Shown: one piece after another, positions 2,124 to 28,452 of the stretch | How the letters are laid out: every line of letters starts with the position of its first letter | Numbering within the stretch: the stretch's first letter is position 1 | Source of the DNA: a virus | Lineage: Duplodnaviria; Caudoviricetes | IMG/VR virus record: IMGVR_UViG_3300046000_004360 | Coordinates: 1-55,573 of that record | Reading direction: 5' to 3' (one strand) | DNA length: 55,573 nucleotides | Notes under the pieces: generated by a model | Seen by the model: only the letters and a program-made list of their open reading frames with translations | Database searches by the model: none | Told to the model about the DNA's origin: nothing | Position numbers and translations under genes: made by a program

Positions 2124-2468
2124 CTATGATGTAACTACTGTAACAGTTCCTAATGATATAATTGATTCTGTCGCGCTCTGTATTTGTCCTAGTGGATCGG
2201 TATAACCTACAGGGTCCCACCCCCACTGTATTTCCCTGCTTGCTGCTGTCTGGTCTGGACGGGGGTTACGCAATGCCTGTGGGTCTGTAAAAGTATACAT
2301 CCCTAGCTGTAATTGAGGATGGTCAGGACTCCAACACTCAGGGCAAGCTAACGTGGCGGTTACTTTTGTCTTTACTACCAGTGCGCGAAGTTGGCTAAGC
2401 TTATAGTGGAACCCACACACATCACATAGCCCAAGCGCCGATTTACCTGCTGCAAAATTAGAACTCAT
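2124..2468 (-). CDS. Zinc-binding hypothetical protein
   Basis: CDVC...CPEC pair; coupled to the upstream adaptor gene (TAAATG). Confidence 0.7.
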   Translation of the reverse strand: MSSNFAAGKSALGLCDVCGFHYKLSQLRALVVKTKVTATLACPECWSPDHPQLQLGMYTFTDPQALRNPRPDQTAASREIQWGWDPVGYTDPLGQIQSATESIISLGTVTVVTS

Positions 2469-4712: not shown

Positions 4713-5003
4713 TTATCCGTAAAAGAAAGTTACAGACGTTGCGTTAGTAATGGTTACATAGGGGTCTGCTTGAAACAACACCCCCTCGCCGGGGAATAAC
4801 AAATATCCAGTGAGTGTGGCGCCAGCAGGGGTATCTAATTTTATACGCTCTGTGCCGCCAGAGCCGCCATCCTTAAATGACAACGAACCTGCAAGCGCCC
4901 CCGATACCCAATAAACTGCCCTAACTCTGGCTCTGGGCACCCCGATAGCTGATGCAGCCGTGGCTGTAAGGTTCTTAGCCTTTACGTCAGTTTGCATAGT
5001 CAT
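4713..5003 (-). CDS. Putative small virion structural protein
   Basis: 96 aa beta-rich ORF ending VTFFYG, in the late operon. Confidence 0.6.
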   Translation of the reverse strand: MTMQTDVKAKNLTATAASAIGVPRARVRAVYWVSGALAGSLSFKDGGSGGTERIKLDTPAGATLTGYLLFPGEGVLFQADPYVTITNATSVTFFYG

Positions 5004-5015
5004 AAGAACCCCCTA

Positions 5016-5468
5016 TTACAGCAAGTTCAGATTTTGTACGTATCTTACTGTGATAGCCCCGACACCTGCGCCAGTATTAGTCGAAGTTACAGCAATCTTA
5101 ACATCCGATGTACCTACGTCAATAAATGCAGCGGTCCTAGTAGCATCGGTACTTGGGACGATATTGACCACGCCGACAGTGCCTCCCTCCGCTGCTGCCG
5201 CTGCGGTAAATTTAGTAGCTAGGACAGTCGTCCCAACCCCGAACGTAGAAGCAACCCCATCCCAAGCAGTTGTTACATATACGAGGATGTCTATGATTTG
5301 GCTGTTAGCTGGAATTACAATTGTGGTTGCTGCAGAGGCTTGGGTGATGGTGTTGGACTGAGCCATAACGACTTGCCCGGTATTCTTTACGTTTGTACCT
5401 AGAGTGGTACCTGTAGTAACTACGATAGTACCTGCTTTGATTGGACCGGAGAAAGTAGAGCTTGACAT
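5016..5468 (-). CDS. Putative capsid decoration/cement protein
   Basis: MSSSTFSGPIKAG N-terminus, Thr/Ala/Val-rich jelly-roll-like sequence, first late gene after the capsid region; AAGGA RBS. Confidence 0.55.
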   Translation of the reverse strand: MSSSTFSGPIKAGTIVVTTGTTLGTNVKNTGQVVMAQSNTITQASAATTIVIPANSQIIDILVYVTTAWDGVASTFGVGTTVLATKFTAAAAAEGGTVGVVNIVPSTDATRTAAFIDVGTSDVKIAVTSTNTGAGVGAITVRYVQNLNLL

Positions 5469-5475
5469 AATTGGA

Positions 5476-5552
5476 TTCCTTTATACGAAGTAAGGTTCAT
5501 TAGTCTCGTATACGTCTGCCGGGACAGTCTAATAAACCGGGGTGCCCGGATA
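5476..5552 (-). ncRNA. Candidate structured 5' leader RNA (10-bp stem plus two possible pseudoknots)
   Basis: Minus strand GGTTTATTAG/CTAATGAACC (one G:U); inner CTG/CAG hairpin whose loop CCCGG complements the 5' CCGGG; TATACGA/TCGTATA pairing next to the RBS. Confidence 0.6.
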
Positions 5553-5557
5553 CACTC

Positions 5558-5586
5558 TTTATACCATGTTTATCGGGGGTTGTCAA
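5558..5586 (-). promoter_or_regulatory. Sigma70-like promoter
   Basis: TTGACA-N17-TATAAA with extended -10 TG. Confidence 0.8.
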
Positions 5587-5597
5587 GGTATTATGGA

Positions 5598-5622
5598 CAA
5601 ATAAAAGCCCTCCGAAGAGGGC
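5598..5622 (-). terminator. Rho-independent terminator (copy 2)
   Basis: GCCCTC-TTCG-GAGGGC followed by TTTTATTT; C(UUCG)G tetraloop. Confidence 0.85.
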
Positions 5623-5668
5623 AACCTTGTCGGGGTTTGACTCATTATATGTTTATATATGGGGGAGG

Positions 5669-6526
5669 TCAAGCATATAGGAAACTCCATCCTTTATATA
5701 TTCCTTTGCTTATTGGCTTACCTGACTTGAGGGCACGGTTGATTGTGGGTGGCGCTAACGACAATACCGCTCGTAAATTAGTAATACTGTCATATATGAC
5801 AGTTTCTTCGCTCGGGTTAATAGCCACTACCTTCTTACTCATCTTCAGCTTGCTTTCTTCCGTGTGGGTTCTACCTAGCCAGTGGCCGTAGTGCCCAGCG
5901 GCTGCAGCTACCTTTATCTTCTCCATACCTTCTGGAGATACTTTGCGCCCCGGACCTTTTGGCACCCCTCGCTGTGCATCGCCTATTTTGCGCTTTACTT
6001 CGTCTGGTTGTTTCTTTCCATATAAATAGTGGTTTTCGCCTGCGTGAAGGCCGACGCGATTTTCGCTCATTTTTTGTTTGGCCTCTTTGGTGTGGTTTAT
6101 TCCATACATAGGATGTTTTTCTGGGGCCTTGAAGTAATAGGATTTTAGGGTGCCTGAAATTGCCTGTTTATGTTCCTCGGTTCTCGGGATGCCAAATAAC
6201 GGATTATCTTCCCCAAATAACCCCCGCATAGGTGCATCAGAATATCGACTTAAATTATAGCAGTGATCTTTTCCTACGTGTTCTGCCAACCATACATCTT
6301 CTGCGGCTTGTAGTGATTCACCTTCCGGCACGGTTTCAACTATACGGAAAATAAAGTTCTGTTCCCCATACTTATTCCATGCGGCTTGCAGATGTTTTGC
6401 GTGGTGTTGGTTAGTTCTAAGTCTATTTCTATGGCACCTAAACCTATCCTTGTGTTTTACTGTACTCCCTACATAGAACTTTCCGTTTACGAGATTAATT
6501 ATTTTGTATATGTACTGTTCTCTCAT
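5669..6526 (-). CDS. Freestanding GIY-YIG homing endonuclease with NUMOD3-type repeats and NUMOD1-like C-terminus
   Basis: YIYKIINLVNGKFYVGS...R...H; repeats HTKEAKQKMS and HTEESKLKMS; start moved to 6526 because the 6562 ATG overlaps the promoter -10. Confidence 0.9.
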   Translation of the reverse strand: MREQYIYKIINLVNGKFYVGSTVKHKDRFRCHRNRLRTNQHHAKHLQAAWNKYGEQNFIFRIVETVPEGESLQAAEDVWLAEHVGKDHCYNLSRYSDAPMRGLFGEDNPLFGIPRTEEHKQAISGTLKSYYFKAPEKHPMYGINHTKEAKQKMSENRVGLHAGENHYLYGKKQPDEVKRKIGDAQRGVPKGPGRKVSPEGMEKIKVAAAAGHYGHWLGRTHTEESKLKMSKKVVAINPSEETVIYDSITNLRAVLSLAPPTINRALKSGKPISKGIYKGWSFLYA

Positions 6527-6560
6527 ACTTACCCCCATAGTTATTAACCTACTAAAAATC

Positions 6561-6588
6561 ATTATACGCGCTTTGGCGCGTTTGTCAA
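6561..6588 (-). promoter_or_regulatory. Consensus sigma70 promoter for the endonuclease, with a palindrome in the spacer
   Basis: TTGACA-N16-TATAAT; ACGCGC...GCGCGT inverted repeat across the spacer. Confidence 0.8.
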
Positions 6589-6651: not shown

Positions 6652-7560
6652 CTAAGCTCCTGCGGAACCGTAAATTCCCAAGGGCTCGCTGAAGCCAAAA
6701 GAATACCTCTCACGCGCCTTATAACGTACATTTCCAGTCTCAAAATCTCCGAGGAAATCTGTAGACAGTGGCGACCTAATAAAATGCTTCAGGCCGTTTG
6801 GAACGTCAGTTGTCAGGAACCACGCGTTAGTGTCGGTCAGGTAGTGGTTGATGGTATAACCTTCTGGAATCGAGCCGTTGTTCTTCAGCGCGTTGAGGTC
6901 ATTATCAGTAGTACCTACCCTGAGTGAAGTCTCCAACAAACGAGTTGCAACAAACTGCAACGCAGGAGGAATCACCAACTTCTTAGGTTTAGCAGCGATC
7001 AACAGCCCTTGCTCGTCAGTCCAAGCAGCGATCTGAATAACAGCGTTTTCCAAAGCAGTCTCGTTAAGATCTACGGCTACTGCAGGGATGTTGCTGTTCG
7101 TGGCTCCATTCACCAGCGGGTGCGAAGCAGAGCAAAGCGCCACACCGTCACCACCCAAATAAGAAGAAGAGAACGCATTGTTCAGCACATTAGCGCCCTT
7201 CACTTGCTTGGTGTATGCCATACTACGTGCCAATGCTTTAGTGTAGCGAGCAGACAGAGTATCATACAGGTTATCTTCAACCGCTTCTTCCGTCAGGGAG
7301 AACCCCAAGGCGATAGTTTCGTGGTTGTAACGAGCGGTCCATGCTTCCTGCGCATTTTGATACGCGATAGAGCTGCCTTCATTTTTGGTTGGCGCGGCGG
7401 AGAAACCAGACAGCTTAGTTTCTTCTTCAAAACTCCGCTCAGAGGTTTCGATTTCATAAATCTCTTTATGTTCCTCGCCATACCGTTTGTATTCCAGACC
7501 GAACAAGGCGTTCAGGCCGGGTAAAAGTTCTTTCTTTAGCTGTGCGCGACTAATTGCCAT
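6652..7560 (-). CDS. Major capsid protein
   Basis: MAISRAQLKKELLPGLNALFGLEY N-terminus, GDGVALCSASHP, KLVIPPAL, DFETGNVRYKARERYSFG: recognised aquatic-phage MCP family; strong RBS and downstream terminator. Confidence 0.9.
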   Translation of the reverse strand: MAISRAQLKKELLPGLNALFGLEYKRYGEEHKEIYEIETSERSFEEETKLSGFSAAPTKNEGSSIAYQNAQEAWTARYNHETIALGFSLTEEAVEDNLYDTLSARYTKALARSMAYTKQVKGANVLNNAFSSSYLGGDGVALCSASHPLVNGATNSNIPAVAVDLNETALENAVIQIAAWTDEQGLLIAAKPKKLVIPPALQFVATRLLETSLRVGTTDNDLNALKNNGSIPEGYTINHYLTDTNAWFLTTDVPNGLKHFIRSPLSTDFLGDFETGNVRYKARERYSFGFSEPLGIYGSAGA

Positions 7561-28208: not shown

Positions 28209-28452
28209 AGATGATGATTACGCTGCTTGGCTACTAAAAGAGATACTGGCGCATGGGGTTGATAATGCGTCAGCATGGTACCCAAGTATGCCGCCATGCG
28301 AGTTCGGCTGGCGCATAGAGGCCGTAAGACACGGGCATCGCCTCATTGATGAGTCTAACCGCAAGCTGCGCAATAAATACGATCATACATTTTGGTACTC
28401 CCCCAAAGCAGTTGAGTGGCTAAAGGATTACAACGAGAGGAGAAATAAATGA
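28192..28452 (+). CDS. Divergent winged-helix-like paralogue C, carrying an nrdA-identical 27-mer
   Basis: WLLKEILAHG...AVRHG...WYSPKAVEWLK. Confidence 0.55.
   Translation: MATPNKDDDYAAWLLKEILAHGVDNASAWYPSMPPCEFGWRIEAVRHGHRLIDESNRKLRNKYDHTFWYSPKAVEWLKDYNERRNK

Follow-up and report, generated by a model that had tools for sequence, protein, structure and literature searches.

The window analysed here comprises the 55,573 nucleotides (nt) of the IMG/VR virus record IMGVR_UViG_3300046000_004360 (Duplodnaviria; Caudoviricetes) and is identical with the entire record, which is 88% complete according to CheckV. The portal, capsid, and tail genes of this tailed phage are encoded on the minus strand. 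Downstream of the capsid gene, this strand carries, in this order, the stop codon of a GIY-YIG/NUMOD3 homing endonuclease gene, a terminator, a predicted promoter, and a leader RNA, which is followed by the ribosome-binding site (RBS) AAGGA and the AUG of a gene for a 150-amino-acid (aa) protein. The latter is predicted to be a capsid cement (decoration) protein. The leader folds into a double pseudoknot around three GAC triplets; this folded RNA is real and is conserved in many aquatic phages. An original prediction, made from the DNA sequence alone, had drawn this fold as a promoter-coupled leader abutting the RBS of a capsid-associated gene. The leader, its helices P1 and P2, its pseudoknots PK1 and PK2, and the gene behind it occupy the following positions:

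5553-5469, minus strand: leader of the cement-protein mRNA, from the predicted +1 to the base before the AUG
5545..5549, minus strand: 5' element CCGGG, 5' strand of PK1, pairs with the P2 loop
5529..5538, minus strand: 5' strand of P1, GGUUUAUUAG, the last G being the G of GAC triplet 1
5503..5529, minus strand: junction core with three GAC triplets (5529-5527, 5516-5514, 5505-5503)
5516..5527, minus strand: P2 hairpin CUG-UCCCGG-CAG (CUG 5527-5525, CAG 5518-5516)
5506..5512, minus strand: linker K, UAUACGA, 5' strand of PK2, pairs with K'
5494..5503, minus strand: 3' strand of P1, CUAAUGAACC, the first C being the C of GAC triplet 3
5482..5488, minus strand: K', UCGUAUA, 3' strand of PK2, ends directly at the RBS
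5466..5481, minus strand: RBS AAGGA (5481-5477), 8-nt spacer, and AUG (5468-5466)
5016..5468, minus strand: regulated gene, 150-aa capsid cement (decoration) protein as predicted from Foldseek matches

The minus-strand sequence of the leader (5553-5477) agrees with the sequence quoted in the original prediction, and all four pairings drawn there are present. P1 is formed by 5538-5529 with 5503-5494 and consists of 10 base pairs (bp) including one U-G pair; it is found in both the minimum free energy (MFE) and the centroid fold. PK1 results from pairing of CCGGG (5549-5545) with CCCGG (5523-5519) in the P2 loop, and the 3' strand of PK2 does abut the RBS, as K' ends directly at AAGGA. Spacings of 13 and 11 nt separate the GAC triplets, and the unpaired A, AC, and GA of the junction are its most conserved letters. 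The nearest-neighbour energies amount to -9.6 kcal/mol for P1 and P2, -10.4 kcal/mol for PK1 and PK2, and -6.0 kcal/mol for PK1 alone. A competing hairpin CCGGG-CAC-CCCGG at 5549-5537, with -7.6 kcal/mol, is also possible. When both strands of the whole window were scanned for three GAC triplets combined with a P1 of at least 6 bp and a P2 of at least 3 bp, only this site was found, compared to a mean of 0.08 sites in shuffled sequences.

In IMG/VR, at least 581 relatives of the 150-aa protein were found, from which the best 80 loci were kept. The pattern GAC-N(4-26)-GAC-N(4-16)-GAC is present in 61 of 65 unique leaders, taken as the last 90 nt before the start codon, and, after shuffling, in 1.8 leaders on average and in 6 at most. 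From this protein-found set, 59 unique leaders were parsed and sorted into classes. Double-pseudoknot forms, which include the window, account for 26 of them. The simple forms of class A (23 leaders; 21 called by a script, L054 and L079 placed by eye) have a P1 of 4-7 bp that runs into the Shine-Dalgarno sequence (SD), a long and varying P2, no pseudoknots, and no 5' element; no consistent pairing partner of the class A linker was found within 45 nt upstream or 90 nt downstream. In class D (10 leaders; clear in L005-L008, L016, L048, and L075, poorly parsed in L040, L057, and L061), the order is GAC-hairpin-GAC-hairpin-GAC without P1, the SD is exposed in the loop of the second hairpin, and the third triplet stands directly before the AUG. 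Leader L080 was also grouped with class D.

Common to every class are two closing pairs: P1 is closed by the triplet 1 G with the triplet 3 C, and P2 by the triplet 1 C with the triplet 2 G. The G-C pair closing P1 is replaced in a compensatory manner by A-U in L069 and L072 (pair 34-64) and by U-A in phage DSL-LC04. In class A, the spacing between the first and second triplet varies with the length of P2. Among 104 unique leaders with a long P1, a PK1 of at least 5 bp can be formed in 102 and a PK2 of at least 5 bp in 101, compared to 12.8 and 32.3 with shuffled flanks. The letters of PK1 differ widely, with 19 sequence types among these 104 leaders, such as CUGGGA/UCCCAG, CCGGG/CCCGG, CUAGG/CCUAG, CUGAG/CUCAG, and CUGGA/UCCAG, and further CUUGGU/GCCAAG, UCGGG/CCCGA, CUGAAC/GUUCAG, CUAUAU/AUAUAG, and GUAUAC/GUAUAC.

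Class C, to which the window belongs, was further collected from IMG/VR with the pattern GACTG-N(4-8)-CAGACG-NN-TACGA, which gave at least 120 stretches; 14 matches were dropped by eye as chance hits in coding sequence (L093, L097, L099, L101, L110, L116, L117, L133, L146, L161, L164, L174, L177, and L193). Two covariance models were built without the window. Model R1 contains 72 unique leaders with the P1 and P2 structure, excluding also the four nearest relatives of the window (L086, L127, L180, and L194), and has a single match in the window at 5475-5556 with 39 bits (expectation value E 5.5e-8, rough calibration). Model R2 contains 33 equally spaced leaders with the PK1 and PK2 structure; it likewise has a single match in the window, at 5475-5552 with 40.3 bits (E 2.4e-8, rough calibration), and matches all 76 of the 76 source sequences given. 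Matches of R1 to L075/L082 at 2308-2389 (minus strand, 26.7 bits) are false positives, which lie antisense in the capsid open reading frame (ORF) and have no GAC junction. Weak antisense matches of R2 in L147, L186, and L095 (20-28 bits, E up to 0.01) were removed by a rerun at 1e-5.

Two MAFFT alignments (A1 and A3), in which the 5' element or the window subclass was out of register, were set aside. Alignment A7 was fitted with R2 and contains 75 distinct class C rows including the window, most of them close relatives. In this alignment, 93.0% of 1945 cells are paired and 15 of 26 pairs have changed on both sides; shuffles gave 6.2 +/- 1.6 such pairs and reached 15 in 0 of 500 cases, and slid controls had 33-50% of cells paired with 3-5 two-sided pairs. 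Two-sided changes are found in 8 of the 9 pairs of P1, which was not fitted by R2, and in 5 of the 6 pairs of PK1. In PK2, 2 of 8 pairs are compensated and 3 more have changed on one side, for example to G-U, and none of the 3 pairs of P2 varies. Of the 24 other double-pseudoknot leaders, 21, referred to as class B, were aligned with plain MAFFT (alignment A8); L009, L030, and L032 are of other sequence types and were left out. Class B uses different letters, with CUAUAC/GUAUAG for PK1 and CCUAG/CUAGG for PK2. In A8, 98.9% of the cells are paired (slid controls 23-48%) and 12 of 22 pairs are compensated, including 7 of 8 in P1 and 4 of 7 in PK1. The double pseudoknot is thus a conserved fold. 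The check for covariation across homologous leaders proposed with the original prediction turned out in its favour, as all four helices covary when the two leader classes are taken together. Its assignment to the minus strand is upheld as well, by the covarying helices and by G-U pairs that are workable on this strand only.

The relation of this leader to known RNA families leads to Mu-gpT-DE (RF03012), an orphan motif that Rfam types as 'Gene; sRNA'. Weinberg and co-workers reportedly found it in 2017 downstream of gpT genes and in metagenomes only; its description presumably stands in their supplement. Gathering-threshold matches of RF03012 occur in 4 of 20 loci scanned (L011, L079, L036, and L033; 50-66 bits), all of class A. 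The RF03012 consensus ends with ...GACAGGAGAUuaACAUG (AGGAGAU..AUG) and therefore includes the SD and the start codon of the next gene. The window leader shares the location of these RNAs. It lies downstream of a Mu-like gpT head gene, the capsid gene at 6652-7560, with a 0.9-kb endonuclease unit intervening, and the SD and start codon of a homologous gene (43% identical to gp56 of Roseobacter phage CRP-901) follow directly. It also shares the core, in which a G-C pair closes P1, an unpaired A follows, C-G closes P2, and AC, a linker, and GA complete the junction, with junction columns equal to those of L011, L033, L036, and L079. In contrast, Mu-gpT-DE has a 4-bp P1 containing the SD, a longer P2, and no pseudoknots, whereas in the window a 10-bp P1 is clear of the SD, the loop of a 3-bp P2 is paired to the 5' element, and the linker pairs beside the SD.

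The common GAC core at the same locus thus makes the leader a variant of a known orphan motif. Judged from its sequence and modelled pairings, it is a divergent, expanded member of a Mu-gpT-DE superfamily of which RF03012 is the simplest form. At least 581 loci in IMG/VR encode the associated gene, and the richer members of the superfamily are covariation-supported double pseudoknots missed by Rfam 15. At E up to 10, an Rfam scan of 4800-6200 returned nothing at the leader, and in the whole record the best match to RF03012 reaches 9.3 bits at 28400-28451, away from the leader and below the gathering threshold of 49 bits. Among the double-pseudoknot leaders scanned (L042, L004, L012, L069, and others), RF03012 finds none, and Rfam at E up to 5 had no match at the leaders of L012, L118, L086, and L009. 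The designation as an uncharacterised RNA is therefore correct insofar as RF03012 detects neither the window nor its class; it fails insofar as related phages have, at this locus, Mu-gpT-DE leaders with the same GAC junction. The literature on this family is sparse. The main text of Weinberg 2017 has no mention of gpT, and a literature search found the names 'Mu-gpT-DE' and 'RF03012' in Rivas 2020 only. In Rivas 2020, RF03012 is among the families for which CaCoFold finds extra covarying pairs. A search for cement protein, pseudoknot, and phage had nothing relevant among the matches listed.

The predicted transcription unit of the leader and its upstream neighbours have the following features:

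5558..5586, minus strand: sigma-70-type promoter, predicted from a consensus match only
5597..5622, minus strand: intrinsic terminator GCCCUCUUCGGAGGGC with U-run, closes the upstream homing endonuclease unit
5669-6562, minus strand: GIY-YIG/NUMOD3 homing endonuclease gene, between capsid gene and leader
6652-7560, minus strand: capsid gene (PF10124 with 27.8 bits, cut-off 20.1; phrog_371)

The predicted promoter consists of a -35 box TTGACA (5586-5581), a 17-nt spacer, a TG (5566-5565), and a -10 box TATAAA (5563-5558). It agrees with the consensus at 11 of 12 positions, has an extended -10 (TGgTATAAA), and has its expected +1 at about 5553-5551. The near-consensus promoter and the start of the leader at its predicted +1 are thus confirmed at the level of a consensus match. 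An automated promoter scan missed this site because it demands a T at the last position of the -10 box. A -10-like box is present at the same position in the nearest relatives, L086/L194, and -10-like boxes are also found in L127 and L180; in this window subclass, the box lies 5-8 nt 5' of the 5' element. In the main class C, the 5' element directly follows the U-run of a terminator and no promoter is found there. In the window, the terminator at 5622-5597 is the 5' limit of the transcription unit of the leader.

Throughout the classes, the motif lies directly 5' of the gene it precedes. Between the end of the capsid gene and the next start codon lie 78 to 826 nt (median 143 nt, 77 loci), and the motif is always found directly 5' of the start codon; in class B, small ORFs add about 620-645 nt between capsid gene and motif. 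As the motif stays with the downstream gene at a variable distance from the capsid gene, it is a 5' leader of capsid cement/decoration genes and not the tail of the capsid message. This cis linkage, which had been claimed for the window, is kept even across intervening endonuclease genes. Moreover, a helix of the motif is tied to the RBS in all classes. Of 101 leaders, 86 have an SD core that starts 3 nt inside K', and in 12, among them the window, it starts 0 nt after K'. In class A, the 3' strand of P1 forms the 5' part of the SD in 21 of 21 leaders, and class D places the SD in the loop of its second hairpin.

The protein encoded behind the leader has no Pfam or PHROG match, and its profile has no match among PDB sequences. 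An AlphaFold (AF2) model calculated from 33 homologues has a beta-sandwich body and a predicted local distance difference test (pLDDT) score of 74.5; the 30 N-terminal residues are highly conserved and have a low pLDDT. In Foldseek, this model matches 7eel_H of the Pam1 capsid (E 1.3e-4), 8h89_J, the GP4 cement protein (E 2.9e-4), and 7dn2_1 of the KHP30 capsid, with E values of the three between 1.3e-4 and 2.7e-3 and template modelling (TM) scores of about 0.5. According to a structural study (PMC9698820), chains J-R of GP4 are the cement protein, the GP4 capsid contains 540 capsid and 540 cement proteins, and a loop at the N-terminus of the Pam1 cement protein contacts the E-loop of the capsid protein. 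Cement proteins are marked by an N-terminal arm on an Ig-like or jelly-roll body and by a gene beside that for the capsid protein, features with which the model and the locus agree; the corresponding gene of phage DSL-LC04 is annotated as 'cement protein'. These structural matches bear out that the gene is capsid-associated, and it is assigned with moderate confidence to the capsid cement (decoration) proteins.

Of 63 unique N-termini, 57 have the N-terminal arm M-x-x-T-T-F-S-G-P-(V/I); the remaining 6 seem to be mis-called starts. The genes behind near-identical leaders (L086, L127, L180, L194, L118, L085, and others) have only the first approximately 12 residues in common, and the bodies of their products are unrelated and comprise 140-250 aa. 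As unrelated bodies stand behind the same leader, autoregulation by the body of the cement protein is unlikely. From sequence comparison, leader and N-terminal capsid-binding arm appear to behave as one exchangeable module, which would mark a hotspot of recombination and homing.

Because the 3' strand of PK2 overlaps or abuts the RBS, translational control would be the likeliest role of the leader. It is suggested that the leader acts in cis on the translation initiation of the cement gene, with a rough probability of 0.5, and that it probably sets the amount of cement protein. In the fold underlying this mechanism, P1 closes the junction, the P2 loop is engaged over its whole length by the 5'-terminal element in PK1, and the junction strand following P2 pairs with the segment ending at the RBS in PK2. 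The folded PK2, or P1 in the simple class, would hold the 5' edge of the RBS, so that access of the 30S subunit would depend on the fold. The fold would thereby tune or gate the output of cement protein relative to capsid protein, whose gene ends in a terminator. More speculatively, the invariant unpaired A, AC, and GA might bind a factor that stabilises the fold, probably not the body of the cement protein itself. For tailed phages, it would be uncommon for a virion structural gene to be under the control of a conserved, complex RNA.

Several observations weigh against translational control by this fold. In the window, the RBS is only abutted and not overlapped by PK2, and repression by PK2 alone may be weak, as 4-5 bases of the strong SD (AAGGAGG) stay free in most leaders. 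The exposed SD of class D fits presentation as well as occlusion. The stability of the single sequence is unremarkable: its MFE of -16.7 kcal/mol lies close to the -15.8 +/- 3.1 of shuffled sequences (z = -0.29), 67 out of 200 of which are equally stable or more so. Part of the covariation in A7 has to be read in the light of the alignment being fitted to PK1 and PK2 and of the search pattern fixing P2 and five positions of K. In the cement protein, the numbers of acidic and basic residues are about equal in a hand count, and genes sharing a leader differ in the body of this protein.

Structure at the 5' terminus stabilises bacterial mRNA, and, as the main alternative to control of initiation, though less probable, the leader may be a ligand-free 5' stabiliser or insulator. 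PK1 would then hide the 5' end of the mRNA from RNase E/RppH and RNase J, and the fold would provide a fixed context for the RBS, raising expression rather than gating it. In accordance with this, a leader of the window subclass would have only about 2-4 unpaired bases before PK1, the element holds its position regardless of whether a terminator, its own promoter, endonuclease genes, or small ORFs precede it, and class D presents the SD in a loop. In addition, the gene follows a terminator, and yet its product is equimolar with the capsid protein in relatives with solved capsids. However, a simple 5' hairpin would suffice for this purpose, and the invariant junction letters and the two pseudoknots suggest a more specific role. 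Furthermore, class A, the form covered by Rfam, has no 5' element at all, and in the main class C, where the 5' element follows the terminator U-run without a promoter, the 5' end is undefined.

An extension of translational control in cis, which is doubtful at present, would regard the GAC-junction double pseudoknot as a class of sensor RNAs in phage morphogenesis that couples translation of the decoration protein to capsid production. The junction might then be an aptamer for a conserved assembly-state signal, which could be capsid protein not yet assembled, a different conserved factor of the virion or the host, or a small molecule. The fold capturing the 5' end might also shield the message from 5'-dependent RNases and would then be a counterpart, in bacterial viruses, of the exoribonuclease-resistant RNAs (xrRNAs).

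A conventional riboswitch for a small molecule or ion, with the GAC junction as aptamer and PK2 or P1 as expression platform, is improbable. Junctions with invariant unpaired bases, pseudoknots, and a helix linked to the SD are the usual hallmarks of riboswitches, and the leader has a multi-helix junction with all of these. However, the regulated genes are capsid decoration genes without any metabolic link, no Rfam riboswitch model matches in the scans of 4800-6200 and of four related loci, and the helices around the junction differ greatly among classes A to D. An alternative helix as required for switching does not covary either. The main-class version, formed by the 5' element and the 5' strand of P1, is formable in 94.7% of cells, with 0 compensatory pairs and covariation no better than in shuffles. 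The local CCGGG/CCCGG hairpin of the window has counterparts of 3-4 bp in its four close relatives, without compensatory change. The switch via alternative CCGGG/CCCGG pairing that had been considered possible was therefore not borne out for want of covariation, although the alternative is energetically competitive in the window (-7.6 versus -6.0). The same hairpin (5537-5549, minus strand), together with the UUUAUU after it, was flagged as terminator-like by a scan; transcription might pause or be attenuated there, where the leader begins. The hairpin has a short stem and lacks conservation beyond the window subclass.

For a trans-acting small RNA (sRNA) or a 3' element of the capsid mRNA, as implied by the Rfam type of RF03012 and by the name 'downstream element', it speaks that the motif lies 80-190 nt after the stop of the capsid gene at most loci and that RF03012 is typed as an sRNA. 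This is very unlikely, as the motif stays with the downstream gene across 370-826 nt or across a whole endonuclease unit, takes in the SD and the AUG of the following gene, and is not separated from that gene by a terminator. Even less credit is given to a self-cleaving ribozyme or nuclease processing site that would separate the capsid and cement messages. The compact pseudoknotted fold with invariant unpaired bases and, in the main class C, the beginning of the motif right after the terminator U-run would suit such a function. However, no candidate cleavage site was identified, and Rfam ribozyme models gave no match in 4800-6200 at E up to 10 and none in four related loci at E up to 5. With this result, the proposal of a ribozyme candidate finds no support; the impression by eye that the leader does not resemble the hammerhead, twister, pistol, or HDV cores proved right, with no match to these Rfam models, or to hatchet, in that scan of the window. 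As a promoter lies at the 5' end in the window subclass, self-processing would be unnecessary there. Finally, a protein-bound DNA site of three phased GAC boxes, which are 13 and 11 nt apart in the window, or a chance structure is next to inconceivable in view of the compensatory changes in four helices including strand-specific G-U pairs, the GAC1-GAC2 spacing that follows the length of P2 in class A, and the 0.08 sites expected per window.

Cis-acting control of initiation by a pseudoknotted leader has possible parallels in known systems. The alpha-operon operator of E. coli, bound by S4, is likewise a double or nested pseudoknot within a 5' leader, where it surrounds the ribosome-binding region and governs initiation; it differs in binding a known basic ribosomal protein and trapping the 30S subunit, and has no sequence likeness to the window leader. 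In the gene 32 operator of phage T4, a pseudoknot in the 5' leader of a phage mRNA also serves translational control and is associated with mRNA stability. There, the pseudoknot is the starting point from which gp32 binds cooperatively along a leader devoid of structure, whereas in the window the structure itself reaches the SD and autoregulation by the body of the product is unlikely. SD-sequestering riboswitches such as preQ1-II and SAM-II share a pseudoknot strand overlapping the 5' part of the SD; in contrast to these, the window leader has no Rfam match, no metabolic gene context, and a different junction. The flavivirus xrRNAs combine a three-way junction with two pseudoknots that involve the 5' end and the 3' tail. 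In the window leader, the partners are permuted, with the 5' end pairing with a hairpin loop and the junction strand with the 3' tail, and sequence and host are unrelated.

Members of the superfamily are also found in cultured phages. In Roseobacter phage CRP-901 (OQ401623), RF03012 matches with 72.3 bits between gp57, the head protein, and gp56 (L204 2451-2503), and CRP-902 holds the homologous gene. Pelagibacter phage HTVC023P (L206 ~2808-2889) has a double pseudoknot before the gene that follows the capsid gene, with a P1 of 10 bp, CCUAG/CUAGG as PK1, and GUAUAG/CUAUAC as PK2, followed by AGGAG. Phage DSL-LC04 (L207 ~2754-2841), in which the pair closing P1 is U-A, has a double pseudoknot at the same place. 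With these cultured carriers, the function of the leader is testable at the bench.

The surroundings of the leader bear traces of mobile elements. The endonuclease unit of the window (0.9 kb) has its own promoter, TTGACA-16-TATAAT, and its own terminator at 5597..5622, which is a duplicate of the terminator at 6624-6607 after the capsid gene. A direct repeat of about 45 nt (6624-6582 and 5622-5581), containing the capsid-gene terminator and the -35 box, brackets the unit and looks like an insertion footprint or duplicated target. A capsid-leader junction free of the endonuclease was not found in the contigs of four DNA runs. Another promoter-like sequence, TTGACC-17-TATAAT (11/12), is located at 5644-5672 on the minus strand, where it runs across the endonuclease stop codon, on the upstream side of the terminator at 5622. 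In locus L009 (2193-2936; also in L032), an ORF for an HNH-type endonuclease (247 aa) is found at the capsid/cement junction, which appears to be a homing hotspot. The end of the HNH endonuclease ORF in L009 overlaps the 5' element of the motif.

In lake-water metagenomes, contigs of relatives pile up on the bin 5476-5572 and not on its flanks, with 458 versus about 4 in run X16 and 546 versus 103 in run X1. The summed contig depth over the leader is 5- to 100-fold above that of the flanks in runs X1, X13, and X16. The same pile-up is seen on the most conserved segments of the capsid gene. As depth sums over organisms, this is only a hint, which fits a strong constraint at the nucleotide level. 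The abundant lake relatives share the leader, but not the neighbouring coding sequence, at an identity of at least 90%.

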